From the IMG/VR virus record IMGVR_UViG_3300024265_000064: a stretch of 52,703 nt of DNA. One strand, given 5' to 3'. Position 1 is the first letter of the stretch, and every line of letters begins with the position of its first letter. The stretch is from a virus. The translations under genes and the position numbers were made by a program. The notes beneath the pieces are model-generated. The model saw nothing but the letters and a program-made list of their open reading frames with translations. It was not told the origin of the DNA and ran no database searches. Below are positions 25,093 through 48,818 of the stretch, piece after piece.

Positions 25093-25332
25093 ATGTCAGT
25101 GATTACATGTGATTGTGACTGTGATCTTTGGAATAAGATTGGAGCACCAGTTGATAAAATCCCAGAATGTGTATTCGGTGGAATTCATTATTTCAAGAAT
25201 AAACGAAAAGCTGCAGAGAAGTGGATCGAATTAAAGTCATTCTATCGTATAGTTTCTGGATCTTGTTTTTCAGTGCCATACTACTGGGCAGTTCATCTGA
25301 ATGGGAAACACATACTTAAAGTCAAACCATGA
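25093..25332 (+). CDS. hypothetical Cys-rich protein (79 aa)
   Basis: CDCDCD motif. Confidence 0.45.
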   Translation: MSVITCDCDCDLWNKIGAPVDKIPECVFGGIHYFKNKRKAAEKWIELKSFYRIVSGSCFSVPYYWAVHLNGKHILKVKP

Positions 25333-26602: not shown

Positions 26603-26611
26603 CAAATTTTA

Positions 26612-26687: not shown

Positions 26688-26691
26688 CTAC

Positions 26692-26763
26692 GAGCGATTA
26701 GCCAAGCGGAAAGGCTTGAGGTTGCAACCCTCAGATGCCCCGGTTCGATCCCGGGATTGCTCT
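26692..26763 (+). tRNA. tRNA-Cys(GCA), U73, CCA encoded
   Basis: Anticodon arm TGAGG-TTGCAAC-CCTCA, T-arm CCCGG-TTCGATC-CCGGG. Confidence 0.8.
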
Positions 26764-26790
26764 CCAACTTAAGAAAAGAAAGGAAAGGAA

Positions 26791-29540: not shown

Positions 29541-30869
29541 ATGCCCGATACAAATCGAAAAAAAATTCTAGTGCTATCAGATCATCCTCTCGTGCCTTCT
29601 GGAGTGGGGATTCAGACGAAGTACCTCATCGAGGGTTTGTTAAAGACTGGGAAGTATAAATTTGTCTGCATGGGTGGAGCAATCCAACACCCAGATAAAC
29701 GAATTCAACATGTTAACCCTGAAGAATTCGGTGACAAGAATTGGATAATCTATCCAGTCGATGGTCATGGAAACAAAGATCTACTCAGGAACTTCCTTCG
29801 TCAGGAAAAACCAGATGCTGTCTTACTTGTCACAGATCCTAGATTCTTTGTGTGGGTTTGGGAGATGGAAGACGAGATTAGATCAGTTTGTCCTCTGTTG
29901 TATTGGCATGTTTGGGATAATGACCCATCCCCTGATTTCAATGAAATCTACTACGATTCAACAGACATGATCGGTTGCATATCTCTAAAGACTTACGGTC
30001 TCCTTCAGGACTTAAAATATCCTGAGAGAAAGTTTGGGTATGTACCTCACTCTCTACCAGCAGAGCTCTTTAAACCACTTCCAAGAGAAGACGTAAAGAA
30101 ATTTAAGCAAGAAACTTACGGACCACACAAGGATAAGAAGTTTATCGTGATGTGGAATAACCGCAATGCTCGCCGTAAACAGACAGGCGATGTTATCGCA
30201 ACTTTTGCTAAATTTGCAAAGAAAATAGGGAGAGATAACACGTCACTGCTAATGCATACATCTCCAACAGATGAAGAAGGACAGAACATCATGGCAGTCG
30301 CCAGGAAATATGATGTTGAAGATTGTCTCATAATTTCAGACAAACGTGTCCAATCTGAAGCGATGAACATGTATTATAACTCTGCAGATATCGTGATTAA
30401 CATTGCGTCAAATGAGGGATTTGGTTTATCGGCGCTTGAGTCTCTCTACACAGGTACACCAATGATTGTTCACATGACAGGTGGTCTTCAGTACCAGATG
30501 GGTGATTGGTACGATAAGATCAAAGACTTCAGTGACCAAGATAAACTAACTGCTGGTGCTAAGAAAGCATGGGTTAGTAAAACTGCACGATGGTGGGGAG
30601 TTCCTGTTTTTACAGCATCAAGAAGTTGCACAGGTTCACAGGTAATCCCATACATTTATGACGATCGTGCTTGCCACGATGATATCGTAAAGGCACTAAT
30701 GAAGCTTTATGAAATGGGAGATGCTCGCCGACGTGAGATTGGCGCAGAAGCACGAGAGTGGGCTTTGCAAACATTTGGCTTACAGCAGATGACTGACAAA
30801 TGGGATACACTAATTGAGATGGCCTTTGATGATTTTGAGCCCGTCAGTATGCGAAGAGCGGTGATATGA
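29541..30869 (+). CDS. glycosyltransferase family 1 (GT-B)
   Basis: NIASNEGFGLSALESLYTGTPMIV matches the GT1 E-x7-E-like signature. Confidence 0.7.
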   Translation: MPDTNRKKILVLSDHPLVPSGVGIQTKYLIEGLLKTGKYKFVCMGGAIQHPDKRIQHVNPEEFGDKNWIIYPVDGHGNKDLLRNFLRQEKPDAVLLVTDPRFFVWVWEMEDEIRSVCPLLYWHVWDNDPSPDFNEIYYDSTDMIGCISLKTYGLLQDLKYPERKFGYVPHSLPAELFKPLPREDVKKFKQETYGPHKDKKFIVMWNNRNARRKQTGDVIATFAKFAKKIGRDNTSLLMHTSPTDEEGQNIMAVARKYDVEDCLIISDKRVQSEAMNMYYNSADIVINIASNEGFGLSALESLYTGTPMIVHMTGGLQYQMGDWYDKIKDFSDQDKLTAGAKKAWVSKTARWWGVPVFTASRSCTGSQVIPYIYDDRACHDDIVKALMKLYEMGDARRREIGAEAREWALQTFGLQQMTDKWDTLIEMAFDDFEPVSMRRAVI

Positions 30870-31870
30870 GTGGCGTGCATAGATGGAAAGATATTAAAAG
30901 AAAGCAGTGTGACAAAATGGCAGTTGCAGTTTTAGGTGGAGCAGGTTTTATTGGATCAAATCTCGTTGATAAGCTTTTAGCTCAGGGCTTTGAGGTTACA
31001 GTACTTGATAATTTCTCAGAGGGTAAACGTGAGAATCTAGTCAAACATCCAAATCTTGAAATTGTGAATGGTGATATACGTGATTACAATATTGTGAGAC
31101 GTGTTGTAGACCACAAAGATTGGGTGTTTCATTTAGCTGCGATGAGTCGAATTCAACCTTCTATCACTGATCCACTTCTTGCATTTGAACAGAATATTAC
31201 TGGTACTGCAAATGTGCTTGAGGCATGTAGAGATGCTGGCGTAAAAAGAGTTGTATACTCTGCTAGCTCTTCTGCATATGGAAAGATTAACGAACCACCG
31301 TTAATGGAAGAATATGAGACAGATTGTCTGAATCCTTACTCTCTTAGTAAGAAGGTCGGCGAGGAGCTTATGAAGCTCTACAATGATCTATATGGTCTCT
31401 CCACTGTGTCACTCAGGTATTTCAACGTGTATGGTCCAAAACACCAAGAAGAAGGTGATTACGCTACTGTTATTGCTATCTTCATGAGACAACTTCGACA
31501 TGGGAAACCATTAACAGTTGTTGGTAATGGCGAACAACGTAGAGATTTTACGTTTGTAACAGATGTCGTAGAGGCAAATATCCTTGCAGGGATGAACAGA
31601 GATGTTACTGGTGTGATCAACATCGGCACGGGTGTAAACCATAGCATTAATGAAGTTGCTTACTTGTGTGCTAGAGTAAAACATGGTGATACTGTCGGTG
31701 ACGTAGATTTAAAATATCTGCCTCCACGACTAGGTGAGGCTCAAATAACATTAGCGGCAGTAGAGAAAGCAAAAAACCTTCTTGGATGGCAACCAACTAT
31801 TTCTCTTGAAGAAGGTCTTGCTATCACACACGAATTTCAAAAAAGGACAGCGATAATCGTTGGAGTATGA
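30866..31870 (+). CDS. NAD-dependent sugar epimerase/dehydratase (SDR, UDP-glucose 4-epimerase-like)
   Basis: GGAGFIGSN Rossmann motif; YSLSK catalytic YxxxK. Confidence 0.8.
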   Translation: MSGVHRWKDIKRKQCDKMAVAVLGGAGFIGSNLVDKLLAQGFEVTVLDNFSEGKRENLVKHPNLEIVNGDIRDYNIVRRVVDHKDWVFHLAAMSRIQPSITDPLLAFEQNITGTANVLEACRDAGVKRVVYSASSSAYGKINEPPLMEEYETDCLNPYSLSKKVGEELMKLYNDLYGLSTVSLRYFNVYGPKHQEEGDYATVIAIFMRQLRHGKPLTVVGNGEQRRDFTFVTDVVEANILAGMNRDVTGVINIGTGVNHSINEVAYLCARVKHGDTVGDVDLKYLPPRLGEAQITLAAVEKAKNLLGWQPTISLEEGLAITHEFQKRTAIIVGV

Positions 31871-31873
31871 GAA

Positions 31874-34800
31874 ATGAAGAAACTCCTCTTTAAAGGACCA
31901 GTTACAACAGCATCCGGATATGGTGTCCATGCTAGGCAGATTCTAAAAGCGCTGGTTGCCAGTGGTGTCTATGATATCAGCGTAAAAGCTATAAGTTGGG
32001 GTAATACGTCGATGATCCATGACGGTTCTCTCTTCTTCGATAAAATCTATGAGCTTGCTTCAAAATTTGGCAGTGAGCACGAAAAAGGCGGAGTTGAATA
32101 TGATCTGTCAGTTCAGGTTACGATTCCGAATGAATTTGAAAAGCTAGCTAAGTGCAATATCGGTATCACTGCAGGTATCGAAGTGAACGCATGTTCTCCT
32201 GAATGGATCGTTAAAGCAAATGAGATGGTGGATGCCTTATTCGTTCCATCAATGCATTCGAAGCAGGTCTTTGAACAGACGGGATTTCAAGATCAAGCAG
32301 GAAATACGCTTAGCTTGAATAAGCCGGCATTTCTTGCACACGAGGGATTCAATCCCAAGTATTTTAATACAGATGAAGTCAATGAGTCGTTCAACGATTT
32401 CGAATGTGATTTCAATTTTCTTTTCGTTGGGCTCGGTATAAGTGGGAAATTTGACGAAGAAAGAAAGAATACGTCAAATCTCATTAAGTGGTTTTGTGAA
32501 GCATTCAAAGACCGTAAAGATGTCGGTCTTGTAATGAAAACAGCGATTGTTAATAATTCGCTTGCAGATTTTAGAAATACAAAATATCTAATTGAACAGA
32601 TTAAGAAATCAACTGATTGTGGGAAATATCCGCGTATCGAATTGATACACGGTCGTCTCTCAGATGAAGAGATGGCACTACTCTACAAGAACCCGAAAGT
32701 TAAAGCTTTCGTTAGTCTGACACACGGCGAAGGGTACGGACTGCCACTACTTGAAGCTGCAGCTTGTGGTCTACCAGTAATTGCTACAAATTGGTCAGGA
32801 CATCTTGATTTTCTTAATATTCCTGATGTAAAGACGTCATTCGTAAAACTTGACTTCGATCTGACACCTGTTCCAGATTCTGCAGTATGGAAGGGTGTAA
32901 TTGAAAAGGGAACGCAATGGGCATCAGTTAAGGAAGAAGATGTCAAGTTTAAGCTACGAAAAGTAGTTGATAGCTATGACAAACCAAAAGAGTGGGCAGA
33001 AAGTCTCGCAAAGCATGTACATGAGAACTTCACTGAAGGTAAAGTGATGTCTCAGCTCGTTAATGACATCACACGCGTTTCACATATGCATCGCCAAGTG
33101 AATCCAACATCTGTAAACGAAGTCATTAGCACACTTAAGTCGAGTTTCGATAAAGAAGATTCTGGCTTGAAACTTCTTTATACAATGCCAATATCTGCCG
33201 GTGATGTATACATTTCAACTGCAGTTGTTAATTCGCTGAAGAAGAAATTCCCAGAGCATAAGATTTTCTTTGCGACAAGCCAAGAGTATACATCAATTCT
33301 GAAAGATAACACTGATATACACAAAGTCTTGCAGCATCAGGACTGGATGAATAATGTTCCATTGCTTGAGCAAGTATTTGATGAGGTTTATACGCCGAAC
33401 CTTGCTGTCCAGATGACATTCTCAAACTGGGTACATGGTGGAAAAGGTCGTCTGCTTGCAAATGAAATTGCAAATCAGTGTAATGTAGAGCTCGGTGATT
33501 ATTTCATTAAGACAGAGGAGATTTCTACTCCAGAAAACTATATTGTCTTCAATCCTGGTTCCGGTGAGGGACAGTGGGAAGCACGGAACTATCTGCACTG
33601 GCAGGAGATCATCAATAATCTTATTAGAGAGCTAGGTGATGAAACACAGATTGTTCAAGTAGGACTGAAAGACGATCCATTGTATGCAGGCTGCACTGAT
33701 TTTAGAGGGAAAACAGAGAACTTTAATCAACTCGCACATGTGATTAGCAAGTCAAAACTCGTTCTCGGCATCGATAGCGTCACGATGCACATGGCGGCAG
33801 GTCTCAGTGTCGATCACGTAGCGCTCTTCGGTAGTTCATATCCAACATCAACAGGTCCAGTAGTTTCATTAATTGACGTATCAGACAATGGATTTGTAGA
33901 GTTTGGAAAAAAATCGTGTAAAAGTGTTCTTCTAGAGACATCAAGTCGCTATACATGTGACAAAGCATGCTATAAATATCAGTGTGAAGTTGACAAAGAC
34001 TATCCTTGTATCAACGAGATAATGCCAGAAAATGTTTTTCGCTCAACGTTAAGACTTCTCTATCCAGATAGAGATCAAAAGAATTTTCTTAAAAACTATG
34101 AAGAATATAATCCAAAGATCTCAGGATACACACATGTCTATAATGCAGAAGGCGGAGAGTATCCATTCGTAGAGTCAATCAAGTCGATGCTTGGATTCTG
34201 TGATGAGGTAATCGTCGTTGATGGTGGTTCAGACGATGGGACAGTAGAGAAAATAAATGCCATCGGAGACAAACGGATTAAAGTCATTGAGCGTAAGTGG
34301 GATTGGGATGAGCCAGGCATGGACGGCATGCAGAAAGCATATGGTCGTGCTATGTGCACTGGAGATTTCCTCTGGCAGCAAGATGTAGATGAAGTTGTCC
34401 ATGAGGAAGATTACGATAAGATTAGAAAGCTTTCAAAGAGATTCCCGAAAGATGTAAACTTACTTCATCTTCCAGTTATTGAACTATGGGGTGAGCCAGA
34501 TTGTGTTCGAACAGACCGCCACTCATGGAAATGGCGATTCTCAAGAAATGACTTTAGGATTACTCATGGTATCACTAAACACGCAAGATTGATTGATGAG
34601 AAGACTGGTAAGGTCTATGCGAAGCGTGGCCAATCTGACGGTTGCGAATATATCGACATCATGACGAATGAATATATTCCCCACAAGGGATTTTATACGA
34701 ACGAGATCGATCAAGTAAGACAACAGGATCCTGCTAGATACGGTGAACTAATGAACAAAGCATTCAGTGAATTGCCGTGTGTCTATCATTATTCATGGGC

Positions 34801-35038
34801 GAATATTCCAAGAAAGATTAAGAACTTTAAACAAACATGGGATGCTATGTGGTCTAATCTCTACCGCGAGCAGGAGCCAGAAGATAGATTTCCTGATGTA
34901 AAGGATGAGAATGATAAAGAAAACATACAGAGAGTTGCTGAAGCTCTTAAAACTCAGGGTGGGGAACACGACGTTGCTAAAACGTTCAGGTTGGATCGTA
35001 CAAATCCGACCGTGATGGGAGATTGGCTTGCTGACTGA
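31874..35038 (+). CDS. multidomain glycosyltransferase (1054 aa): N-terminal GT1-like plus C-terminal GT2-like
   Basis: EGYGLPLLEAAACGLPVIATNW (GT1) and VVDGGSDDGT DxD-type GT2 motif. Confidence 0.65.
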   Translation: MKKLLFKGPVTTASGYGVHARQILKALVASGVYDISVKAISWGNTSMIHDGSLFFDKIYELASKFGSEHEKGGVEYDLSVQVTIPNEFEKLAKCNIGITAGIEVNACSPEWIVKANEMVDALFVPSMHSKQVFEQTGFQDQAGNTLSLNKPAFLAHEGFNPKYFNTDEVNESFNDFECDFNFLFVGLGISGKFDEERKNTSNLIKWFCEAFKDRKDVGLVMKTAIVNNSLADFRNTKYLIEQIKKSTDCGKYPRIELIHGRLSDEEMALLYKNPKVKAFVSLTHGEGYGLPLLEAAACGLPVIATNWSGHLDFLNIPDVKTSFVKLDFDLTPVPDSAVWKGVIEKGTQWASVKEEDVKFKLRKVVDSYDKPKEWAESLAKHVHENFTEGKVMSQLVNDITRVSHMHRQVNPTSVNEVISTLKSSFDKEDSGLKLLYTMPISAGDVYISTAVVNSLKKKFPEHKIFFATSQEYTSILKDNTDIHKVLQHQDWMNNVPLLEQVFDEVYTPNLAVQMTFSNWVHGGKGRLLANEIANQCNVELGDYFIKTEEISTPENYIVFNPGSGEGQWEARNYLHWQEIINNLIRELGDETQIVQVGLKDDPLYAGCTDFRGKTENFNQLAHVISKSKLVLGIDSVTMHMAAGLSVDHVALFGSSYPTSTGPVVSLIDVSDNGFVEFGKKSCKSVLLETSSRYTCDKACYKYQCEVDKDYPCINEIMPENVFRSTLRLLYPDRDQKNFLKNYEEYNPKISGYTHVYNAEGGEYPFVESIKSMLGFCDEVIVVDGGSDDGTVEKINAIGDKRIKVIERKWDWDEPGMDGMQKAYGRAMCTGDFLWQQDVDEVVHEEDYDKIRKLSKRFPKDVNLLHLPVIELWGEPDCVRTDRHSWKWRFSRNDFRITHGITKHARLIDEKTGKVYAKRGQSDGCEYIDIMTNEYIPHKGFYTNEIDQVRQQDPARYGELMNKAFSELPCVYHYSWANIPRKIKNFKQTWDAMWSNLYREQEPEDRFPDVKDENDKENIQRVAEALKTQGGEHDVAKTFRLDRTNPTVMGDWLAD

Positions 35039-35828
35039 CATATTCATAACTTATAAAAATAGAGATGATCTTTTTGAAAGATCTTACTCATCTTTTATGG
35101 AAAACACAGATCCATCGTTATATCGTTTAACGGTTATTTGTGATGGATATGATATACCAGACTTTGTTAAAGACTGTGATCATATATTGTGGCACGCAGA
35201 TAATCTTGGTCTTGGTCCGTCGATAAATCAGGCTCTTGCTCACATTGATGCGTTGAATAAATATTACGAATCTTCACCTGATCCTGCTGATTGTAACGAA
35301 GTGACCGAATTTGTTTGCTACTGTCAGGACGATCTGCTATACTCTCCCGGTTGGCTCGAGACGCTAGCAAAGTTCTTCTTATTGTTCGAGCGACAAAAGA
35401 ATCTCGGTTTTGCATCTGGTGTAGAATGTATAGAACATGAGATGAAAGAGGTAGTGGGAGAATTTCAAGGAACAAAACTCATCACGAAAGATTGGATTCG
35501 TGCAGCACAAGTATTTGGTCGACGTGATTATTGGATGAGTATGTTTCCAATTCCTGCATTTGATCCTGAGACAGGTAGAAAGCGCGCTAAACCGAACGAC
35601 GGGATGGGATCGGGTGTCGACTGGCATTTTATACGAAACCATGAGAATTCCGTGTGCAAGTCAGGAAAAACGTGTTTAGTTCTACCTGGTCTCGTAAAAC
35701 ATATGGGATACGATCAATCAACGTGGTTAGATCGTGAAATGCCAGAGTCTAATGAAGATAAGCGTGCCATCCGATGGAACGACATAACCAAAAGCAAAGC
35801 TGTGATTAAGGACATTAATGACTGGTAG
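35028..35828 (+). CDS. hypothetical sugar-modifying enzyme (start TTG 35028 or ATG 35095)
   Basis: ORF inside the glycosyltransferase island. Confidence 0.4.
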   Translation: MLTDIFITYKNRDDLFERSYSSFMENTDPSLYRLTVICDGYDIPDFVKDCDHILWHADNLGLGPSINQALAHIDALNKYYESSPDPADCNEVTEFVCYCQDDLLYSPGWLETLAKFFLLFERQKNLGFASGVECIEHEMKEVVGEFQGTKLITKDWIRAAQVFGRRDYWMSMFPIPAFDPETGRKRAKPNDGMGSGVDWHFIRNHENSVCKSGKTCLVLPGLVKHMGYDQSTWLDREMPESNEDKRAIRWNDITKSKAVIKDINDW

Positions 35829-36870
35829 ATTAGTTACAATTTCATTTACTTCATTAGATTCTCCTGGTGGTGTTCCACGATGGTGTCGAGATTTTGCTAG
35901 TTGTTTTCCTGAGACAAAACACTATTGCTGGCAGGACTGCCCACTTAGCAAATTCAATGAGCCGATGGCTGAGTGGGATCGAGCGGCTGTCTTGAATGCC
36001 TGGCTTAGGAAGTTTGGTAAAGTAGACAAAGATGACATCTTCATCGTAGATGGATTCTGGGGCCAGGGCCTCGAGGATTTCCCAAATGTTATCTCAGTGT
36101 GCCATGGTATCTGGTCGCATCTCATAAAAGAAGAGGCCGACGCTGGCAAGAAACCTGACTTCCCTCTTAATCACGCGATGCAAGTGGGATACAGGAAGGG
36201 ACATTTAAAACGAGGCGGAAAGCTCGTCGCTGTATCTCAGTTCATCCAGCACCAGATGCAGATCCAGTGGGGATTCGAGTCTGAAGTAATCAATAATGCT
36301 ATTGATCTTGAGAAATATACTCCATCAGATGAACCACACTATTTAGGAAAACCATTCATTATACATGGTATAAATGATCGTGGGAATAAAAACAAAGGAT
36401 GGGAACATATTGAATATCTTAAAGAGAATTTAGATGCTGTCATTTTATCTCTTGATGAAGCATCCGGTCATCTTGATCAAGAAGATAAGCATAAAGTTTT
36501 AGCAATGGCAGATCTCGTCGTCATCCCGTCAGCATATGAAGGAAATTCATATTTTGCATTAGAAACGTTGGCATGTGATGTCCCAGTGGTGACATATAAT
36601 GTTGGATTATTCTATGAGCTAAGTAAACGAGATCATGATCATCCCTTTTGGCCAGCAAGATATGACGTTGGTTATATAATGCCAAGAATCTGTAGAAGTA
36701 AAGAGATGACATTGGAGTATGTAAAGTTAGCATTGGAAGGTTTAAAAGATTTTCCACATTCTAATTCTCCACGTTATGTTGCAAAAACCTATCAAGTGTA
36801 TAATTTCCATGCACACTGGAGAGCCTATTTGAATAGGGAGTTTGGATATGAGTCTTCGAGTCAGAGTTGA
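35818..36870 (+). CDS. glycosyltransferase family 1-like
   Basis: VVIPSAYEGNSYFALETLACDVPVV. Confidence 0.6.
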   Translation: MTGRLVTISFTSLDSPGGVPRWCRDFASCFPETKHYCWQDCPLSKFNEPMAEWDRAAVLNAWLRKFGKVDKDDIFIVDGFWGQGLEDFPNVISVCHGIWSHLIKEEADAGKKPDFPLNHAMQVGYRKGHLKRGGKLVAVSQFIQHQMQIQWGFESEVINNAIDLEKYTPSDEPHYLGKPFIIHGINDRGNKNKGWEHIEYLKENLDAVILSLDEASGHLDQEDKHKVLAMADLVVIPSAYEGNSYFALETLACDVPVVTYNVGLFYELSKRDHDHPFWPARYDVGYIMPRICRSKEMTLEYVKLALEGLKDFPHSNSPRYVAKTYQVYNFHAHWRAYLNREFGYESSSQS

Positions 36871-39030: not shown

Positions 39031-39085
39031 CTATAAGGTGAAAAAACACATTATAATTTCTCCTCGTGAGGGAAGTGATTTCTCC

Positions 39086-42163: not shown

Positions 42164-42170
42164 TCACACG

Positions 42171-42545
42171 ATGGCAAAAGTAGAAAAAGTTACATGGGAT
42201 GACACATATCGTGCAAATCGCACTTGGGGATATGAAAAATGGGTCGAAAATCTTGATGACTACTGTGGAAAAATACTTGTTCTACAGAAAGATAAAAAAG
42301 GCTCAATGCATTATCACATGAAGAAACTCGAAACGATGTACTTGAGTTCAGGACGTGTTAATATTCGCTTTAGAGATCCTTCAAACGCAGAAGACTATGT
42401 CATAAATCTTCATGTAGGAGATAGTGTTAGAATACCACGTGGGCAACAACACCAAATTATCGCATTGATGGATTCGACGTTGATTGAGTTTAGCACGAAA
42501 CATGAAGAAGAAGATTCTTATAGAGTCGAGTTAGGATCAAGATGA
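42171..42545 (+). CDS. cupin-domain protein (sugar epimerase/isomerase-like)
   Basis: HYHMK...G...IPRGQQHQ two-His cupin motifs. Confidence 0.5.
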   Translation: MAKVEKVTWDDTYRANRTWGYEKWVENLDDYCGKILVLQKDKKGSMHYHMKKLETMYLSSGRVNIRFRDPSNAEDYVINLHVGDSVRIPRGQQHQIIALMDSTLIEFSTKHEEEDSYRVELGSR

Positions 42546-42781
42546 AATATTTTGAAGATAAAGCCGACAGATCAAAACCTAGTGGTACGACTTTAGAAAA
42601 GGTAGCTAATCAAGAAGATATTTCTAAAGTAGAAAACAGCTTGTTTGTAATGTATAGACATTCATATGAAGCAGATATTCCAACATTCGATTTAGACATT
42701 ATACACTATATTAGATTAGAGTCTCTACCAGAAGATTTAAGAAACCAAGTTCGCGAACACTTTGGATGGGATCCAAAATGA
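42542..42781 (+). CDS. hypothetical protein (79 aa)
   Basis: ATGA overlap with previous. Confidence 0.45.
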   Translation: MKYFEDKADRSKPSGTTLEKVANQEDISKVENSLFVMYRHSYEADIPTFDLDIIHYIRLESLPEDLRNQVREHFGWDPK

Positions 42782-43689
42782 AGATTAACATGATAGGTGC
42801 TTTCGTTAGGAATGCTCCATTTGGCACTGAGATTGCATTCAAGAAAGGACTTGAGCAGATCGGTGTTTCAGTGTTTACATGGGATCCTTCACAAAAAGAA
42901 TCTCAAACGCTACGTAATGATGCTGATGCAACTATTGTATTCAAAGATCAAGGAGAATATTCGCATGTTGTTCTTCGTGATATGAAAACTTTTGGTCAAA
43001 CTGTAATTGAATATCAACCAGATGATATCCGTGCACCTGGCATCCGTGGAATGATGGAACACATGCGGGAGTTTTGTGATTATGCATTCACGTTTGATAA
43101 GGAAGGTGCTCGTGTAGCGAACGAGATCGGTTATAAGAAAGCCAAAAAATTACTTCTGACTGCAGATCCGGATCTCTATAGACCGCTCGGTCTTCTGCAT
43201 GATATTGATTTTTGTTTTATTGGAAGTCTTTCGAATCCAGTGATGCACGAAAGTCGAAATAAGATGATTAGACTTCTAACTGCAGCTGGTCATAACGTGG
43301 TTGCTTTAAGCATTTTTGATCCAGAAATAATTAATGCTATCTATAATAGATCAAAAATCGTGTTGAATCATGCTACAGATGTAGGACAAGATTTTGGTTG
43401 GGGTTATGGCTACCAATGTAGACACTTTGAAGCAGGGTTCGCAGGTTCATGTCTTCTTTCCAATTCACTTCTTGATAATGATGGAGATGGGCCAGAACAG
43501 TTTTGTACTTTCAATTCAGAAGAAGAGCTTCTTGAAGATTTAAATCTTTTGCTTGATGGGTGGTATGATGGTCCAATCAACGAACAACAAGGGAAAGCAT
43601 TGTTACAAGAACTAATGGAAGGACACACTCCACAACACAGAGCACGTGAGATCGTTCAGTTCATCGAAGAAGTGAGAGAATGCGATTAA
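42778..43689 (+). CDS. putative glycosyltransferase (GT-B C-terminal-like)
   Basis: ATG 42778 overlapping previous stop. Confidence 0.4.
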   Translation: MKINMIGAFVRNAPFGTEIAFKKGLEQIGVSVFTWDPSQKESQTLRNDADATIVFKDQGEYSHVVLRDMKTFGQTVIEYQPDDIRAPGIRGMMEHMREFCDYAFTFDKEGARVANEIGYKKAKKLLLTADPDLYRPLGLLHDIDFCFIGSLSNPVMHESRNKMIRLLTAAGHNVVALSIFDPEIINAIYNRSKIVLNHATDVGQDFGWGYGYQCRHFEAGFAGSCLLSNSLLDNDGDGPEQFCTFNSEEELLEDLNLLLDGWYDGPINEQQGKALLQELMEGHTPQHRAREIVQFIEEVRECD

Positions 43690-44258
43690 ATTTAGGATGC
43701 GGTTCTGATGTACGGGAAGGCTATATAAACGCTGATCTGCTGACATTAAGTTGTCGTGATGTAGTTAAGGTTGACTTGACAGTGTTTCCGTGGCCGTGGA
43801 GAGATGCAGAAGAGATCTTGATGCTTGATGTTCTCGAACATTTTTCTTATCGACTAACAGACACGATCCTTCAGGAAATTTGGTTTACATTAAAAACTGG
43901 TGGATTTGTTGAAATTCAAGTTCCTGACTTTGATCACTGTGCTATGGCTGCAATGAAAGACGATTGTCTTTGCAACGTATGCGCAAACAAGATGTATTCA
44001 GAAGATAAAAAATGTGCAAAATGCAACACGCCTTTCAATGATATAGCTCAAGCTGCTATGAATAGACTCTATGGCGGGCAGGATTATGAGGGTAACTGGC
44101 ACTACACAGCGTTTACAAAGTCTCTTTTAGAGCATAAGCTCAAACGAATAGGATTCAGTGATATCGAATTTCTAGATAAAAATGAGAATGGTGAGACGTA
44201 TTTTCAGAATTGGAACTTTAAAGTAAGAGCTTTTAAATCTGAAGATGCTTGGGGCTAA
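43680..44258 (+). CDS. class I SAM-dependent methyltransferase
   Basis: LNLGCGSDVREGYINAD motif I. Confidence 0.75.
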   Translation: MRLNLGCGSDVREGYINADLLTLSCRDVVKVDLTVFPWPWRDAEEILMLDVLEHFSYRLTDTILQEIWFTLKTGGFVEIQVPDFDHCAMAAMKDDCLCNVCANKMYSEDKKCAKCNTPFNDIAQAAMNRLYGGQDYEGNWHYTAFTKSLLEHKLKRIGFSDIEFLDKNENGETYFQNWNFKVRAFKSEDAWG

Positions 44259-45250
44259 ATATGGGCTGGAAGAACAAAAACGTATTAATCACTGGCATCA
44301 ATGGTTTCATTGGCACAGCTCTTGCCAGAAGACTTCTTCTCGAGGGAGCTAATGTTTCAGGTTTAGTTAAGGAAATTAGCCATGCAGCTGATATTTTGTA
44401 CCACGGAAACTGCAAGCTCTTCACGGGAGATATCTGCGATTACACGACATTAAGTGAGATAATCTCACTTCAGGAGATTGATGTAATCTTTCACTTTGCA
44501 GCATTTGCCATTGTTAGATCATCTTCAAAAGATCCAATGTCAACGTATCGTATTAATGTAATGGGAACTGTGAATGTTCTTGAAGCTGCACGCAATGTTG
44601 GTAGATGTAAGAGCATTGTAGTTGCTTCCTCAGATAAAGCATATGGAGATCATGAGGAACTTCCATATACTGAAGATTTTGCTCTACAACCAAAGAATAC
44701 ATACGATACCTCTAAAGCATGTATGGATATGATTGCTAGATCTTACGCGCATAACTATGATATGCCAATCTGCGTAACGAGGTGCAGTAATGTCTACGGT
44801 CCGGGTGACATGAGCTTATCACGAATCGTTCCAAATACAATCAAGCTAATTCTTGATGGAAAAGGCCCAATGCTTTATTCAGATATTGAAAGCATGGAGC
44901 GTGAGTTTATCTACATTGATGACGTAGTTGAAGCTTATCTTAAGTTAGGGACAGGATATTGTGCACTTAAACCAATCAAAGCGCCTCAGGGTGAAGCTTA
45001 TAACATCGGTGGAACAGGCCCAGTGAAAATCTATGATTTAGCTGCCAAGATATCAGAGCTTATGGGTTCAAAGAAGAAACCATTTGTAAGCCGGCGTGAT
45101 CCATTGTTTAAGGAAATTCAAAGACAGTACATCGATGCTAGTAAGCTTTTAACGATACATGCATGGAAGCCTCAAATAGATCTTGATGAGGGTCTTAAGA
45201 GAACTGTTGAGTGGTATAAGTCTTTTTACATAGATGGTGAATATAAGTGA
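44249..45250 (+). CDS. NAD(P)-dependent sugar nucleotide 4,6-dehydratase/epimerase (SDR)
   Basis: TGINGFIGTAL Rossmann; YDTSK YxxxK. Confidence 0.75.
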   Translation: MGLNMGWKNKNVLITGINGFIGTALARRLLLEGANVSGLVKEISHAADILYHGNCKLFTGDICDYTTLSEIISLQEIDVIFHFAAFAIVRSSSKDPMSTYRINVMGTVNVLEAARNVGRCKSIVVASSDKAYGDHEELPYTEDFALQPKNTYDTSKACMDMIARSYAHNYDMPICVTRCSNVYGPGDMSLSRIVPNTIKLILDGKGPMLYSDIESMEREFIYIDDVVEAYLKLGTGYCALKPIKAPQGEAYNIGGTGPVKIYDLAAKISELMGSKKKPFVSRRDPLFKEIQRQYIDASKLLTIHAWKPQIDLDEGLKRTVEWYKSFYIDGEYK

Positions 45251-46278
45251 GAATAGCTTTTGTAGGAATTGAGAGGAATTGGGAAGATCTCGCTAAACGT
45301 GATTATGTTTTTCAGTTTATTAAATGTCATCTTGAGCTTCCTTACTACTATTCTCTATTTGGTAAGAATGAAGTTGATATTGTAACAGATTTTGAGTGGG
45401 GTCCACAGACAACTCGTGACGGAGGATTATCATGCTTAGAGGTAATCCTGTATGATATCTTTAAGGAAAGAGATTATGATGTTGTTGTCCACTGGAGAAA
45501 ATGGATTGATACTTGTTATAAATCAGAAGCTGTAAACGTAATCAATAGTCAGGACCACACATACGGTCTTGGTTGGTTGAAGACTGTCGAGAAAGCTACA
45601 GAAGAAGGCAAGCTTGATGGTATTCTCTGTTTTCCTAAGTGGCATGAGAATAATTTGGCAAGTGAGCTCTCACGCCTTACGAGAGCTCCCCAGCTCCTCC
45701 CTGGTGTCACGCTTGGTGTTGATACAGAGACATATCACCCCTGTGAAAAAGACCCTCGAGCGCTTCTGTGGGCTTCTGATATCGGGAGAGGCTTGCAGGG
45801 TGCAATAGAGCTTACACTGAAGCTTTTTCAGCGCGATAAACGCTTCAAGCTACATATTTGTTGGCCTGACTACACGAATGGCGGAGTCATCATAGATCAT
45901 CCTGCATTGGAATTTCATAAGAATCTTGACAATGGTCCTGAGTTATGGGGATTATTCAATAAGTGTAGTTTTCTGCCGTATACTTCGACATTTAAGGAAC
46001 CCTCTTCAAGAGCTCACAGGCAAGCAATGGCGGCAGGATGTATAGTGCTGTATCCGCCAAACATGGGAACACCATCAGACTTGATTACATGCGGTGTCGA
46101 TGGCATCGTATCCCCTGTCAACAGCTGGATAGATACGATCATCGAATATACAGAAGATTCGACAGCATTCGCTTTGATATCAGATAATGCTAGGACTTAC
46201 GCAGTGAGTGAAAACTGGGAAGTACAAGCAAAACGCTTCAATAAGCTATTCGAAGGTATGATAAATGACAAGCATTAA
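45247..46278 (+). CDS. putative glycosyltransferase (GTG start)
   Basis: C-terminal GT-B-like region (AHRQAMAAGCIVLYPP). Confidence 0.4.
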   Translation: MRIAFVGIERNWEDLAKRDYVFQFIKCHLELPYYYSLFGKNEVDIVTDFEWGPQTTRDGGLSCLEVILYDIFKERDYDVVVHWRKWIDTCYKSEAVNVINSQDHTYGLGWLKTVEKATEEGKLDGILCFPKWHENNLASELSRLTRAPQLLPGVTLGVDTETYHPCEKDPRALLWASDIGRGLQGAIELTLKLFQRDKRFKLHICWPDYTNGGVIIDHPALEFHKNLDNGPELWGLFNKCSFLPYTSTFKEPSSRAHRQAMAAGCIVLYPPNMGTPSDLITCGVDGIVSPVNSWIDTIIEYTEDSTAFALISDNARTYAVSENWEVQAKRFNKLFEGMINDKH

Positions 46279-47263
46279 TACACCCGATTTCTTGGATAAC
46301 TTTAACGTTGCTGATATGACAGTCGGCATCGTTGGATTTGGTTACGTTGGTCAAGCAATTGAAAATTTCTTCAATGATCAGTGTCGTACCGTTGTCTATG
46401 ATAAGTTTAAGAAAGTTCATGATACATACAAGCTTGACACACTTGAAGACGTTGTTCGTGAGTCAAATGTGGTCTTTCTTGCAGTTCCAACGCCAATGAA
46501 CAAAGATGGCAGCTGTCACACTAGCATCGTCGAAAGCGCTCTCAGTGATATTAGAATAGTTGCCAAGAGCATTGATCGTGATACGAGTGAATTCGTCATC
46601 GTGATCAAGAGCACAGTGACTCCTGGGTTCACAAAGAAAATGCAACAGACTGGGCTTCGTGTTGTTTTTTCTCCTGAGTTTCTTACTGAGAAGAATAGCT
46701 TTGCAGATCTAGAAAATACATCACGTGTTCTATTTGGTGGTGATGACGAAGATACGACTATCGTCGTAAGATTCTTCCAAAAGAAACTGCAGAACAAAGC
46801 AGTCTTGGGGATGGCAGATGATCCAACGACATTAGAGATGGTGAAGCTCTTTACGAATACACTACTAATGACAAAGGTTCTCATTGCAAACGAGATTTTT
46901 CAAGTCTGTAGACATCTCGACGTTGATTACGAGGAAGTAATGCTTCTCACTTGTTTAGATCCACGTATTGCACGCAGTCATTTACAAGTTCCAGGACATG
47001 ATGGACAGCTCGGCGCGGGAGGTCACTGTTTTCCAAAAGACATTAATAGCCTTAGAAGTGTCGCAGCAGAGTTCGGGACTGGTGAGAAACTATTTAGTGC
47101 AGTCATCGAGCGGAATCTTGAGCTTAGAGAGAAGAAGGATTGGCTTGAGATGAAAGGAAGAGCAGTTGTCGAAGACTACGAAGAAGATAGTGATGGATCT
47201 GGACGGGACCCTGTGTACTCAGGAGAGTTCGGGAACATATCATCTAGCACTACCAAATCTTGA
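46265..47263 (+). CDS. UDP-glucose/GDP-mannose 6-dehydrogenase family
   Basis: VGIVGFGYVGQA N-terminal Rossmann; GGHCFPKD catalytic Cys motif. Confidence 0.8.
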   Translation: MTSINTPDFLDNFNVADMTVGIVGFGYVGQAIENFFNDQCRTVVYDKFKKVHDTYKLDTLEDVVRESNVVFLAVPTPMNKDGSCHTSIVESALSDIRIVAKSIDRDTSEFVIVIKSTVTPGFTKKMQQTGLRVVFSPEFLTEKNSFADLENTSRVLFGGDDEDTTIVVRFFQKKLQNKAVLGMADDPTTLEMVKLFTNTLLMTKVLIANEIFQVCRHLDVDYEEVMLLTCLDPRIARSHLQVPGHDGQLGAGGHCFPKDINSLRSVAAEFGTGEKLFSAVIERNLELREKKDWLEMKGRAVVEDYEEDSDGSGRDPVYSGEFGNISSSTTKS

Positions 47264-47513
47264 GGTTATAGAGGAAGTCAACCGTCTTTGGACGAACGGC
47301 TGGCATGTAACGATCTTCACTGCTCGTGGCATGGAATCGTGTGATGGAGATGTCATAATGATTGAGACAATATATCGTGAGATGACAGAGAAATGGTTGA
47401 AAGACAACAGAGTCTGTCATGATCGACTCTTGTTTGGCAAGCCGTCAGCAGATTTTTATGTCGACGATAAAGCTATGCATCCTGCAGAGTTCATAAATTT
47501 TAATGATAAGTAA
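47193..47513 (+). CDS. HAD-superfamily phosphatase (GmhB-like candidate)
   Basis: N-terminal MDLDGTLC DxDGT motif; ATG 47193 preferred over TTG 47166; overlaps 3' end of upstream gene. Confidence 0.5.
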   Translation: MDLDGTLCTQESSGTYHLALPNLEVIEEVNRLWTNGWHVTIFTARGMESCDGDVIMIETIYREMTEKWLKDNRVCHDRLLFGKPSADFYVDDKAMHPAEFINFNDK

Positions 47514-47919
47514 TATCGTATTCACGAATGGTTGTTTCGATCTTCTGCATGCTGGTCATGTAGGAACGTTGAGATACGCAAGAGATCTGACGGGCGGTCG
47601 CTTAGGTTCTGTGGTAGTTGGATTGAATAGTGATGTCAGCATTAGGAAGATCAAGGGCAACGATCGCCCAATAATCTCTCAGTGGATGCGACGTGATATG
47701 CTCTTGGCGCTTAAGTATGTCGATCGTGTCATGATATTTGATGAGGAAACACCCTACGATTTAATAAAGAAGCTAAACCCAGACATCATCGTTAAAGGCC
47801 CTGAATACCTGAATAAAGATGTTGTGGGATCTGATATTGCACGTATTGAAATAGTGCCTAAATCGTACTGTGTCGATATATCAACGTCGAAGACTATAGA
47901 GAAGATAAGGAAACTATGA
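47503..47919 (+). CDS. HxGH nucleotidyltransferase (RfaE domain II-like heptose-1-P adenylyltransferase / cytidylyltransferase)
   Basis: TNGCFDLLHAGHV motif. Confidence 0.8.
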   Translation: MISNIVFTNGCFDLLHAGHVGTLRYARDLTGGRLGSVVVGLNSDVSIRKIKGNDRPIISQWMRRDMLLALKYVDRVMIFDEETPYDLIKKLNPDIIVKGPEYLNKDVVGSDIARIEIVPKSYCVDISTSKTIEKIRKL

Positions 47920-48818
47920 GTAGAATCCTAGTAGTTGGTGACATAGTCATAGATTGCTACACACACGTTACGACTTCTCGCATGGCGCAGGAAGCAGATA
48001 TCCCTGTTTTTGATAAAACTGGTGTGAAAGAGCGTAGATTAGGTGGAGCTGCAAATGTAGCAGCAAATATCAAAGCACTTGCTGGAGATAGTATTTCTGT
48101 AGATCTAAATGGAATAATGAGAGCTCTAGATGCTGATCTCATGTCAGATAATGATCTTAACGGGTGGATGGTCTGGGGAGATAGTTTAGAAAAACATAGA
48201 TACGTCTGTGATGATAAGATAGTGTGTCGTGTAGATAACAAAAAGAAGTTTGATCGAGCATATAGAGAACATTTTGAAGAGTGTTTTGAGCTCAGTCAGC
48301 ACTATGACCTGATTGTCATATCTGACTATGACAAGGGGACAGTAACAGAAAGTGTCACAAAAAAGATTCTAGATTCTGGTATTCCCGTCGTTGTTGATTC
48401 GAAGCGAAAAGACCTGAGAATATTTGAGGGAGCAAAGTTCTTAAACGTGAATGAACACGAATACTCTCTTCAGGTTTCGAATAAAGACTACACGGCCGTT
48501 GAACGATTGTTTGACTTTGTCATTGTGACACTTGGAGAAAAGGGAGCTCAGCTTCACCAGTGTGAGAGCTCAAAAAGCGATGATAAATCGTACATGGTTC
48601 ATACTGAACGTTTTTCGACAAAAGAAGCAAAACATGTTGTAGATGTCACTGGTTGTGGTGATACACATACTGCAGCATTTGCGTTAGGGATTGTTAGAGA
48701 TCCACAAGATATTAGAGGCGCAGTTAGATATGCGAATGAGTGTGCCACATTAGCAGTAGAGAAGTTTGGTACAACGAGGATTTCAAGATGGGATTTTTCG
48801 AGGAACTTGCAAGAGTAA
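47916..48818 (+). CDS. PfkB-family sugar kinase (RfaE domain I-like heptose-7-P kinase candidate)
   Basis: VDVTGCGDTHTAAF GAGD-type motif. Confidence 0.75.
   Translation: MSRILVVGDIVIDCYTHVTTSRMAQEADIPVFDKTGVKERRLGGAANVAANIKALAGDSISVDLNGIMRALDADLMSDNDLNGWMVWGDSLEKHRYVCDDKIVCRVDNKKKFDRAYREHFEECFELSQHYDLIVISDYDKGTVTESVTKKILDSGIPVVVDSKRKDLRIFEGAKFLNVNEHEYSLQVSNKDYTAVERLFDFVIVTLGEKGAQLHQCESSKSDDKSYMVHTERFSTKEAKHVVDVTGCGDTHTAAFALGIVRDPQDIRGAVRYANECATLAVEKFGTTRISRWDFSRNLQE

Follow-up and report, generated by a model that had tools for sequence, protein, structure and literature searches.

A conserved glycan-synthesis island with a heptose module and a candidate cupin isomerase in a large uncultured tailed phage

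The 52,703-nucleotide stretch of viral DNA analysed here, referred to below as the window (IMG/VR record IMGVR_UViG_3300024265_000064), originates from a large, approximately 200-kb, tRNA-rich uncultured tailed phage and carries at positions 29541-48818 an unbroken run of 20 consecutive plus-strand open reading frames (ORFs). In this island of about 19 kb nearly all ORFs contain sugar-nucleotide, glycosyltransferase (GT) or glycan-tailoring domains according to Pfam and NCBIfam. The island is probably a conserved, operon-like glycan factory, the soluble enzymes of which would act in the host cytoplasm and make a methylated glycan containing heptose delivered as nucleoside diphosphate (NDP)-heptose. 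NDP-heptose and further sugars would be made from central metabolites and host nucleotide sugars. The further sugars, probably a uronic acid and a 6-deoxy/4-keto sugar, would be provided by a 4-epimerase-like short-chain dehydrogenase/reductase (SDR), a 4,6-dehydratase-like SDR and a truncated dehydrogenase. About ten GT domains, two of which are GT9 heptosyltransferase-like, would assemble a hetero-oligosaccharide, which three S-adenosylmethionine (SAM) methyltransferases, a B12-radical-SAM enzyme and a deacetylase would decorate. The acceptor would most likely be a structural protein of the phage, in the capsid or in a tail/baseplate fibre. We infer the substrate of each enzyme, the role of a small cupin encoded in the island, the nucleotide used and the acceptor.

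The junctions between the island genes are either overlaps of 1-31 nt or gaps of 3-7 nt. The exception is the ORF of a small HAD phosphatase, which overlaps with its upstream gene by about 98 nt if the TTG at 47166 is the start. A PD-(D/E)XK nuclease gene precedes the island and an M15 endolysin gene (48788-49249 in the ENA gene call) follows it. The inventory comprises the heptose genes, two extended SDRs and about ten GT domains; the tailoring enzymes are three SAM methyltransferases, one radical SAM enzyme of class B and one deacetylase. A preliminary description of this DNA had listed 17 consecutive genes and had assigned two GT domains to a 1054-aa protein; the corresponding numbers were found to be 20 ORFs and, by Pfam, three domains (GT4, GT9 and GT2). 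Nearly every other domain named there was recovered with Pfam and NCBIfam, and the presence of a glycan island in a phage was upheld. The SDR epimerase and SDR dehydratase matched Epimerase (30866) and GDP_Man_Dehyd (44249), respectively, and the cupin and the B12-binding radical SAM enzyme were both confirmed by Pfam. The three methyltransferases, one of them fused to a heptosyltransferase-like domain, were also found, the third one (43680-44258) being visible through its orthologues only. Two assignments held at the family level: the proposed UDP-sugar 6-dehydrogenase belongs to the NDP-sugar dehydrogenase family, with the C-terminal domain missing, and the phosphatase belongs to the HAD family and is of the TIGR01689/PDB 1XPJ type, not of the GmhB type.

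No membrane segment was detected in any island protein (Kyte-Doolittle, 19-residue windows, threshold 1.6); the sole hydropathy window above 1.6 fell on the cofactor-binding (Rossmann) domain of SDR 44249. No Pfam family of initiating phosphoglycosyltransferases, flippases, polymerases or ABC transporters was found in the island. The lowest GC content of the window, 0.34 compared with about 0.41 elsewhere in the island, was determined at 40001-42000. This stretch coincides with the TylF methyltransferase and the GT9-methyltransferase fusion and may be a recent acquisition or rearrangement.

The conservation of the island was studied with a 343-aa GT-B protein (45247) as the marker, which retrieved 12 IMG/VR and five metagenome loci; three more loci were found via searches with the nucleotidyltransferase and the cupin. 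The island was syntenic in at least 19 related contigs from different samples and environments, which reach 185-205 kb, and the amino-acid identities in the tblastn matrix were 35-73%. The order shared by practically all of these contigs starts with GT 35028, GT4 35818, the deacetylase, GT 39023 and GT9, with or without the methyltransferase, and continues with the cupin, GT 42766, methyltransferase 43680, GT-B 45247, the truncated dehydrogenase, in some cases the HAD, the nucleotidyltransferase, the kinase and the endolysin. In the relatives, baseplate genes always follow at a distance of about 5 kb, and a gp25 baseplate gene and a fibre-like Laminin_G_3 protein are located about 5-9 kb past the island end. 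Four parts are accessory: the radical SAM enzyme was found in three relatives, the 4,6-dehydratase in about half of them and TylF in the window genome only, and the fourth is a cassette that the window does not have. In 11 of the 19 relatives (L004 2189-4944, L006 2289-4873, L029 2902-6013) this cassette, located between the GT9 gene and the cupin, encodes a class II aldolase, an RpiB, a second PfkB kinase and a transaldolase. The RpiB of L029 carries a second cytidylyltransferase-like nucleotidyltransferase as a fusion partner, and the cassette looks like a second sugar-nucleotide pathway.

The heptose genes are located at the end of the island. The kinase matched TIGR02198 (rfaE_dom_I) with 160.4 bits (E 5.7e-47) at an equivalog cutoff of 345, the next family being ribokinase with 45.8 bits, and its best solved relative was HldA 4E84 (E 1.6e-15). 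For the nucleotidyltransferase, the score with TIGR02199 (rfaE_dom_II) was 137.6 bits (E 2.5e-40; cutoff 181.5) compared with 46 bits for the next family, and the best PDB match was HldC 5X9Q (E 2.7e-22). With thousands of stand-alone HldC-like proteins the nucleotidyltransferase also shared 47-60% identity; some of these are named heptose-1-phosphate adenylyltransferases by NCBI. Judged by these profile and structure matches, the assignment of the two proteins to the HldA and HldC families is strong. A reassignment of either one to an unrelated pathway was looked for, and the domain searches kept both nearest to the RfaE families. The earlier proposal of a split RfaE pair leading to ADP-heptose thus stands with regard to the closest families, the next ones being about 100 bits lower. 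However, both scores are below the equivalog cutoffs and, therefore, the exact substrates are predictions.

According to a summary of the viral enzymes, an (F/L)xxGRSTT motif marks heptose nucleotidyltransferases that are promiscuous towards nucleoside triphosphates (PMC11573728). The C-terminal motif of the window enzyme is YCVDISTS, without the Arg of the published (F/L)xxGRSTT (STTR5) hallmark; the motif of the relative L029 is FVPGRSTT. No homologue of GmhB (HAD-IIIA) was found in the window. The HAD at 47166 occupies the same operon slot as the true GmhB of Saccharibacteria and would fill the GmhB step. In tblastn searches with Escherichia coli GmhA, no match was obtained in the window or in any related locus, which agrees with the preliminary description. 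The probe was 97% identical to an E. coli-derived record and hence valid.

Four of the island proteins are shared with cyanophages. In tblastn comparisons with two cyanomyovirus loci (S-CAM1 and S-T4), the shared genes were those of the nucleotidyltransferase (40% identity), the kinase (25-27%), the small HAD (36%) and the cupin (41-45%). The cyanophage labels of the latter two are 'phosphoheptose isomerase' and 'cysteine dioxygenase', respectively; cyanophage genes labelled 'carbohydrate kinase' are 24-29% identical to the kinase. The four genes are contiguous and overlapping in S-CAM1, S-T4 and P-SSM2, with the cupin gene directly after nucleotidyltransferase-kinase-HAD, and the module is bracketed by tail-fibre genes in P-SSM2 and S-CAM1. 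They are T4-GC 304-307; Sullivan et al. reported that T4-GC 304, 305, 307 and 308 co-occur and have no known function (PMC3037559). In the phage database the cupin was found in 35 marine records and the nucleotidyltransferase in 36, at a distance of 0.4-6 kb where both positions were listed. No GmhA homologue was found in the cyanophage records.

Homologues of the nucleotidyltransferase, kinase, HAD and cupin (40%, 25-29%, 36% and 41-50% identity, respectively) are present in the cyanomyovirus 'lipopolysaccharide (LPS) gene' clusters (P-SSM2, S-SM2, S-SSM7, S-CAM1, S-T4; T4-GC 304-308), and both the clusters and the island are near tail/baseplate genes and tRNA genes (PMC3037559). However, the window phage is of a different lineage, as no DNA match was found in INPHARED and a protein resembling the major vault protein is shared only with huge phages. 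Its island is larger and is a conserved core feature of its clade, and in the window 5 kb separate the cupin from the other three genes. Compared with the clusters, the island adds the tri-domain GT, the GT9-methyltransferase fusion, the B12-radical-SAM enzyme, the deacetylase and the truncated dehydrogenase, and it is without the NodU-like carbamoyltransferase. This NodU/Nol-like carbamoyltransferase, absent from the window, is encoded directly before the heptose module in cyanophages (L002 5943-7625; L030 5732-7534), and one is also found near the cupin in a Binataceae locus (L094 3735-5513).

GmhA was not found wherever it was searched for and the cupin stands in its slot in cellular operons, which makes the cupin a candidate isomerase. 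There is about an even chance that the cupin (42171-42545) is a sedoheptulose-7-phosphate (manno-type ketose-phosphate) isomerase replacing GmhA. The metal site, H47-x-H49-x-x-K52-x-E54 together with H94, was invariant in 22 homologues, and the Lyx_isomer match falls on this stretch. The AlphaFold2 model had a predicted local distance difference test (pLDDT) score of 96. Among its structural neighbours were D-lyxose/mannose isomerases and a small phosphomannose isomerase from an archaeon, along with the cupin domain of CapF and numerous unrelated cupins. The gene immediately upstream of the cupin gene encodes, in 11 relatives, a transaldolase, an enzyme that can make sedoheptulose-7-phosphate; in L004, L006 and L029 this gene overlaps with that of the cupin. 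Seven related phage loci have kept the cupin, the kinase and the nucleotidyltransferase with no detectable SDR in 15-21 kb, which argues against a role on an NDP-ketosugar or an obligatory SDR partner.

The cupin family was also surveyed in cellular genomes (one genome per species), where it was found in 234 contigs, the best 80 of which were analysed. In 14 of the 80 loci, phylogenetically scattered, the cupin was accompanied by an HldC-like nucleotidyltransferase and in 12 of these 14 also by an HldA-like kinase. The order in the Saccharibacteria locus L051 was cupin, HldA (276 bits), GmhB (169.5 bits, near the cutoff), HldC and HldD (345 bits, above the cutoff). The genes follow the steps of the canonical pathway, and the position of GmhA is taken by the cupin. 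In other cellular loci the order was nucleotidyltransferase, kinase, 1XPJ-like HAD and cupin, i.e. the 1XPJ-type HAD replaces GmhB. GmhA was not found within 8 kb of the cupin in any of the 80 loci. No paper linking a cupin to sedoheptulose-7-phosphate isomerase was found in the literature.

In a metagenome lineage (L027 6001-11731), a member of the same cupin family heads an operon with a GHMP kinase, a nucleotidyltransferase, two SDRs, an RmlC-like epimerase and a B12-radical-SAM enzyme. The operon is preceded by transketolase-like/E1 fragments and constitutes another cupin-led sugar-nucleotide pathway variant.

Several findings weigh against the complete heptose pathway and the isomerase role of the cupin. 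The kinase, the nucleotidyltransferase and both SDRs score below the NCBIfam equivalog cutoffs. As the window covers 52.7 kb of a genome of about 196 kb, GmhA is possibly encoded elsewhere in it. The cupin fold is generic: the isomerases are no closer than the cupin domain of CapF, which epimerises a UDP-4-keto sugar at C3. Within the window the cupin is about 5 kb, with five genes between, from the contiguous HAD, nucleotidyltransferase and kinase genes (47166-48818). In 43 of the 80 cellular loci, mostly redundant metagenome-assembled genomes of Binataceae, the cupin is beside an SDR and not beside a kinase or nucleotidyltransferase. In L094 (Binataceae) its neighbours are a GT on one side and a true GDP-mannose 4,6-dehydratase on the other. 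The Binataceae arrangement fits either a phosphomannose-isomerase-like or an NDP-ketosugar epimerase role. Finally, the marine loci L024-L026 pair the cupin with a faint fusion of a SIS domain and a nucleotidyltransferase.

A rival reading, somewhat less probable than the isomerase, is that the pathway is incomplete. In that case GmhA of the host would give heptose-7-phosphate, and the cupin would be a CapF-like or RmlC-like NDP-4-keto-sugar epimerase/isomerase which, together with the SDR dehydratase, would lead to a rare 6-deoxy or epimerised sugar. The seven phage loci with cupin, kinase and nucleotidyltransferase but no SDR are at odds with it, as are the similar cellular loci L043 and L082. 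A separate RmlC-like gene is already present beside the cupin in L035 and L047. In the order cupin-HldA-GmhB-HldC-HldD the isomerase position is taken by the cupin, far from the SDR, and the complete cyanophage genomes are without GmhA. The supply of GmhA by the host, as had been presumed, is thus not the sole reading, because the cupin travels with the kinase, the nucleotidyltransferase and the phosphatase in cyanophages, in the phage clade and in cellular operons.

With regard to the acceptor, the glycosylation of virion proteins in the cytoplasm was ranked first, above a remodelling of LPS of the lipooligosaccharide (LOS) type. The ranking is tentative and falls slightly short of an even chance; in the preliminary description virion-protein glycosylation had been given as the alternative. 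The ranking is based on the all-cytoplasmic machinery, a stable core trait beside baseplate and fibre genes, and on the cyanophage module, which in two cyanophage genera is bracketed by tail-fibre genes and which occurs in phages of hosts reported to be without LPS heptose. The multidomain GTs and the GT-methyltransferase fusion, as in the capsid-glycosylation enzymes of chloroviruses, point in the same direction.

Remodelling of the host envelope is a less likely purpose of the island but a serious rival. According to this explanation, soluble GTs, including the two GT9 domains, would extend or replace the lipid A-core in LOS style at the cytoplasmic face of the inner membrane, the host MsbA/Lpt would export the product, and the surface of the infected cell would be altered, for example so as to block superinfection or the adsorption of progeny to lysing cells. 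GT9 enzymes are best known as LPS-core heptosyltransferases, which work on the lipid A-core from the cytoplasmic side and require no membrane segment, and synthesis of the LOS type does without Wzx, Wzy and an initiating phosphoglycosyltransferase. An island devoid of membrane proteins is therefore compatible with a LOS-type remodelling, which counts against a virion acceptor. The NCBIfam matches to heptosyltransferases I/II/III are in line with this, and cyanophage clusters have been so interpreted in the literature (PMC1079782). In contrast, the heptose module is found in Saccharibacteria and in phages of cyanobacteria, the LPS of which has been reported to have neither heptose nor Kdo (3-deoxy-D-manno-octulosonate) (PMC4515613). 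Furthermore, the island is a stable syntenic core beside baseplate genes clade-wide and not a variable, host-matching cassette, WaaC/WaaF are very distant from its GT9 domains (best PDB E 0.045), and no lipid A or Kdo enzymes are present.

These results also bear on the earlier view of ADP-heptose as a Gram-negative LPS-core precursor: as the same module occurs in phages of cyanobacteria and in Saccharibacteria, the target is not fixed. The absence of membrane segments from the island means that there is no flippase, polymerase, transporter or initiating phosphoglycosyltransferase, so a self-contained remodelling of O-antigen or capsule is unlikely. From the LPS/O-antigen proposal of the preliminary description, the LOS-type remodelling of LPS remains as the rival of virion glycosylation.

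A hypermodification of DNA, in which the GTs would put sugars on modified phage bases against restriction as in T-even and further phages whose DNA is glycosylated, is very improbable. Phage GTs are often DNA-modifying, all the enzymes are cytoplasmic, and phage DNA has been described as carrying diverse glycans (cited in PMC12619734). However, no base-hydroxymethylase or other hypermodification gene was found among the window ORFs scanned. In addition, the set of GTs, methyltransferases, deacetylase, dehydrogenase and heptose pathway far exceeds the known DNA glycosylation systems, and the island is beside lysis and baseplate genes, not replication genes. Least credible of all is non-functional cargo, either 'stuffer DNA', as raised for cyanophage LPS clusters (PMC3037559), or a recently captured bacterial polysaccharide locus without a role in infection: the radical SAM, TylF, dehydratase and transaldolase cassette parts are variable and the GC content dips to 0.34 at 40-42 kb, but none of the 20 tightly packed ORFs is disrupted, the core order is kept at 35-73% identity over 19 contigs from different environments, and the catalytic motifs (CxxxCxxC, the HxHxxKxE metal site, GGHCFPKD, DLDGTL) are preserved.

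Glycosylation of virion proteins by the island can be compared with two systems of other viruses. In chlorovirus PBCV-1 the soluble A111/114R has three GT domains, A064R has two GT domains and an O-methyltransferase, and the capsid protein is glycosylated in the cytoplasm (PMC7826918). These enzymes are parallels to the 1054-aa tri-domain GT and the GT9-methyltransferase fusion of the window, and in both cases the machinery is virus-encoded, cytoplasmic and membrane-independent and includes nucleotide-sugar enzymes. Unlike the window phage, PBCV-1 is a eukaryotic giant virus without heptose and with the major capsid protein as a proven acceptor; the likeness is one of architecture. The mycobacteriophage systems of virion glycosylation reportedly consist of two to four genes and use host nucleotide sugars, whereas the window has 20 genes with its own precursor pathways; both have phage-encoded GTs, and the likeness is by description. 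In mycobacteriophages the GTs act on subunits of the capsid and the tail tube (Freeman et al. 2023, cited in PMC12619734).

Compared with O-antigen and capsule loci that depend on Wzx/Wzy or an ABC transporter, the island is without their integral membrane proteins. It is likewise without the membrane proteins GtrA/GtrB/Gtr or the acyltransferases of serotype-converting prophage modules (gtrABC, oac), and no integrase was seen among the window ORFs scanned. With the bacterial ADP-L-glycero-beta-D-manno-heptose pathway (GmhA, HldA/HldE-I, GmhB, HldC/HldE-II, HldD) the window has in common a HAD phosphatase and a kinase and nucleotidyltransferase that are closest to HldA and HldC, at scores below the equivalog cutoffs. 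The island differs from this pathway by having no SIS-type GmhA, no HldD and, in place of the HAD-IIIA GmhB, a 1XPJ/TIGR01689-type HAD. Viral NDP-heptose enzymes are already known, as a virus-encoded monodomain heptose nucleotidyltransferase and kinase were described by Tang et al. (Science 2024, summarised in PMC11573728). The monodomain nucleotidyltransferase and the kinase are shared by the window, the former without the (F/L)xxGRSTT hallmark. Neither a cupin nor a 1XPJ-type HAD is named as a pathway member in that summary (PMC11573728).

A colinear mini-version of the upstream end of the island, about 6 kb long, was found in the cultured Microcystis phage Mel-JY01 (190 kb), on which no paper was found in the literature. 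The order there is PD-(D/E)XK nuclease, GT4, a second GT4 (39% identity with the 1054-aa protein in its N-terminal domain), GT-A and methyltransferase. Two adjacent GT ORFs in the same position after the nuclease are 34-40% identical to GT 29541. Unlike the island, Mel-JY01 had no match to the kinase or the cupin and was not among the NT-positive (nucleotidyltransferase-positive) organisms listed, so there is no sign of a heptose module in it; GT9, radical SAM and SDRs are also lacking.

The predicted genes are presented in Table 1.

Table 1. Predicted genes of the glycan island and an upstream phosphomannomutase gene, with positions in the window
Predicted product	Position	Strand	Main evidence
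Eukaryotic-type phosphomannomutase (231 aa)	25329..26024	+	Pfam PMM 108 bits; PHROG 29277, E 6e-55
GT4-type glycosyltransferase (442 aa), first island gene	29541..30869	+	Pfam Glycos_transf_1, E 7e-10
Extended SDR, NDP-hexose 4-epimerase-like (334 aa)	30866..31870	+	Pfam Epimerase, 208.7 bits
Three-domain soluble glycosyltransferase (1054 aa): GT4 ~1-400, GT9 heptosyltransferase-like ~430-700, GT2/GT-A ~745-870	31874..35038	+	
GT2-like protein (266 aa), weak assignment	35028..35828	+	Pfam Glycos_transf_2, E 0.0044, below cutoff
GT4-type glycosyltransferase (350 aa)	35818..36870	+	Pfam Glycos_transf_1 (E 1e-8), Glyco_trans_1_4; kept in relatives
DUF2334/CE4-like polysaccharide deacetylase (217 aa)	36842..37495	+	DUF2334 32.5 bits, Polysacc_deac_1 24.7 bits, above cutoff; kept in relatives
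B12-binding radical SAM enzyme (511 aa), accessory	37495..39030	+	Pfam B12-binding 45.3 bits, Radical_SAM 89.5 bits
GT-B-like glycosyltransferase (346 aa; ENA start 39038)	39023..40063	+	Pfam Glyco_trans_1_2, 29.2 bits; kept in most relatives
TylF-family sugar O-methyltransferase (206 aa)	40056..40676	+	Pfam TylF (E 1e-21), Methyltransf_24
GT9 heptosyltransferase-like and class I SAM methyltransferase fusion (495 aa)	40676..42163	+	Glyco_transf_9 residues 162-273; Methyltransf_23/11 residues 355-419
Metal-binding cupin (124 aa)	42171..42545	+	Pfam Lyx_isomer, 22.2 bits vs cutoff 20.8
79-aa ORF	42542..42781	+	Called on ENA contig; island membership by position only
GT-B-like glycosyltransferase (307 aa; ENA start 42778)	42766..43689	+	Pfam Glyco_trans_1_2, 36.1 bits
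Class I SAM methyltransferase with zinc-ribbon insert (192 aa)	43680..44258	+	N-terminal LNLGCG motif; orthologues
Extended SDR, NDP-hexose 4,6-dehydratase-like (333 aa)	44249..45250	+	Pfam GDP_Man_Dehyd, 200.7 bits
Divergent GT-B (GT4-like) glycosyltransferase (343 aa), island lineage marker	45247..46278	+	Orthologues and profile
NDP-sugar 6-dehydrogenase-like enzyme (332 aa)	46265..47263	+	Pfam UDPG_MGDP_dh_N and central domain only
Small HAD phosphatase (about 115 aa; start uncertain)	47166..47513	+	TIGR01689 EcbF/BcbF capsule phosphatase, E 6e-20; PDB 1XPJ, E 8e-19
HldC-like heptose-1-phosphate nucleotidyltransferase (138 aa)	47503..47919	+	TIGR02199; PDB HldC 5X9Q
HldA-like PfkB sugar-phosphate kinase (300 aa), last island gene	47916..48818	+	TIGR02198; PDB HldA 4E84

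The best solved relatives of SDR 30866 were UDP-Glc/GlcNAc 4-epimerases (6DNT, 4ZRM, WbgU, WbpP) and UDP-xylose synthase, and its top 60 PDB matches were UDP-sugar 4-epimerases, decarboxylases and dehydratases. No chain named as the heptose 6-epimerase HldD was among the 60 best PDB matches listed. The assignment of this protein as HldD was rejected, as the heptose_epim score (149 bits vs the cutoff of 274.6) was below those of GalE and LegB and the PDB matches were 4-epimerases. For SDR 44249 the best NCBIfam matches, below cutoff, were CDP-Glc and dTDP-Glc 4,6-dehydratases and the best PDB matches were the dTDP-glucose 4,6-dehydratases 6BI4 and 5U4Q; its orthologues were detected in about half of the relatives. 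The dehydrogenase at 46265 has kept the catalytic-Cys motif GGHCFPKD and differs from UDP-glucose/GDP-mannose 6-dehydrogenases by the absence of the third, C-terminal nucleotide-sugar-binding domain: positions 70-296 of the 413 of TIGR03026 were aligned, with the last approximately 115 missing. Such a short dehydrogenase (302-332 aa) is conserved in L004, L006 and L029, always directly upstream of HAD-nucleotidyltransferase-kinase. The HAD has a DLDGTL motif and is uncalled on the ENA contig, but its orthologues are called in the same three relatives.

In the 1054-aa protein Glycos_transf_1, Glyco_transf_9 and Glycos_transf_2 were all above the Pfam cutoffs, NCBIfam heptosyltransferase III/II/I matches were located at residues 604-670, and a DVDE (DxD-like) motif is present. 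Orthologues were found in L009, L015 and L021, and the PDB sequence search with this protein gave no match. The GT2-like protein at 35028 is 49-71% identical to its counterparts in eight relatives (L009-L015, L021), and GT 42766 is kept in all relatives covering the region. The marker GT-B 45247, found in all 19 related loci, had no Pfam match itself; its orthologues matched Glycos_transf_1 (E 3e-5 to 7e-5), and a profile of 14 sequences matched the GT4 structures 4XSO (E 1.5e-4) and MshA. An hhalign comparison of the 343-aa family with the GT4 of the island itself gave no signal, and the single-sequence AlphaFold model of the protein was unusable (pLDDT 32). With the GT9-methyltransferase fusion, the best match in the PDB sequence search had an E value of 0.045, which is too remote to tell LPS-type from protein-type heptosyltransferases. 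The fusion corresponds to two separate adjacent genes, methyltransferase and then GT9, in L004, L006 and L029.

The radical SAM enzyme combines the motif CPFQCGFC (CxxxCxxC) with an N-terminal B12-binding domain, which places it in class B. Its best NCBIfam matches (HpnJ, PhpK and BchE) were all far below cutoff, and orthologues were detected only in L010, L020 and L029. A DUF2334 protein is also located near the cupin in the marine loci L024-L026. No orthologue of TylF 40056 was detected in any of the 19 related loci. ORF 43680 gave no Pfam match above cutoff itself, and its L004 and L006 orthologues matched Methyltransf_11 with 27.9 and 29.6 bits (cutoff 21.2). BLASTP of the 192-aa ORF against the methyltransferase domain of the fusion gave no signal. 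The same ORF (43680-44258), which has the length of GmhA, was considered as a divergent GmhA and rejected, being a methyltransferase. The 79-aa ORF at 42542 had no family match and no orthologue was detected in the relatives.

The analysed 52.7 kb belong to a genome of about 196 kb: an ENA metagenome contig, from which the gene calls were taken, carries a stretch identical to the window, and a 196,492-bp JGI contig carries an identical cupin. The window is one long plus-strand gene array with phage hallmarks. PHROG matches were a homing endonuclease, a phosphoesterase, the PD-(D/E)XK exonuclease and the M15 endolysin. The array at 14957-26766 contains 32 tRNA genes, all on the plus strand, which cover most amino acids and are interspersed with small ORFs. 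The phage origin is supported by the PHROG matches, the 32 tRNAs, the IMG/VR relatives and the baseplate gene gp25 just downstream in the relatives. No match was obtained when the DNA of the island was compared at near identity with 50,697 phage records (INPHARED), and no related locus was confirmed in IMG/VR by a search with the kinase alone. Scans for sigma-70 promoters and intrinsic terminators at 26-52.7 kb gave counts no higher than in shuffled sequence, and therefore no transcription units were drawn.

The phosphomannomutase gene (25329-26024) is 3.5 kb upstream of the island, with tRNA genes, the phosphoesterase, an SLT-like protein and the nuclease between them. The window ORFs that were scanned included no GDP-mannose pyrophosphorylase. 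We infer that the phosphomannomutase is possibly an outlying member of the island.

Within the tRNA array, Rfam gave an 83-nt match to the tmRNA model (17537-17619) and a 128-nt match to the tRNA model (17704-17831), the latter possibly an intron-containing tRNA. A homing endonuclease (23238-23909; PHROG 314, E 1e-35) lies amid the tRNA genes, as does the sole sizeable minus-strand ORF (18104-18703, 199 aa). The N-terminus of the latter, ITGCPRSGTKF, resembles the loop of sulfotransferases that binds 3'-phosphoadenosine 5'-phosphosulfate, and the match to Pfam Sulfotransfer_3 was very weak (E 0.051). If the ORF is real, this suggests a sulfation of glycan or protein. An 877-aa protein with a major vault protein shoulder and repeat domains is encoded at 2507-5140; its only relatives in the phage collection, at 40-42% identity, are in the huge phages LR756500, LR756501 and LR756503 (462-735 kb). 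The DUF7873 protein at 12996-13730 (314 bits) has homologues of 39-46% identity in large Arthrobacter, Rhodococcus and Gordonia phages and also matches in Vibrio, Rhizobium, Klebsiella and Serratia phages.

Phage sugar clusters (2005, 2010), heptose-gene annotations in cyanophages, viral NDP-heptose enzymes (2024) and virion glycosylation in mycobacteriophages and giant viruses have been published. Phage-encoded heptose genes, as proposed in the preliminary description, are thus already present in cyanophage annotations and in the work of Tang et al. 2024, as summarised in PMC11573728. What is new here is a clade-wide, all-soluble island of about 19 kb with the architecture of a tri-domain GT, a GT9-methyltransferase fusion, a truncated dehydrogenase and an occasional B12-radical-SAM enzyme. 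The recognition of the cupin and the mini-HAD as integral parts of a four-gene heptose module lacking GmhA and GmhB is also new. A wider proposal is more speculative and on the present evidence less likely than not. According to it, a cupin isomerase and a 1XPJ-type mini-HAD heptose-bisphosphate phosphatase, together with HldA- and HldC-like enzymes, would form an alternative NDP-heptose pathway without GmhA/GmhB across large phages, bacteria of the candidate phyla radiation (CPR) and archaea, and phages would use GT9-like transferases to heptosylate their own virion proteins and not LPS.

The island is among the largest and best-conserved sugar clusters of lytic phages, which have been known since 2005, and it defines a clade of approximately 200-kb phages. 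Its all-soluble enzymes, multidomain GTs and baseplate neighbourhood lead to a testable answer, namely that the phage glycosylates its own particle. If the pathway with the cupin and the mini-HAD is true, it would correct the misannotations 'cysteine dioxygenase' and 'phosphoheptose isomerase', which are widespread in cyanophage genomes, and would explain how phages of heptose-less hosts come to make heptose. It would also extend the range of organisms producing NDP-heptoses, which are innate-immune agonists in vertebrates.

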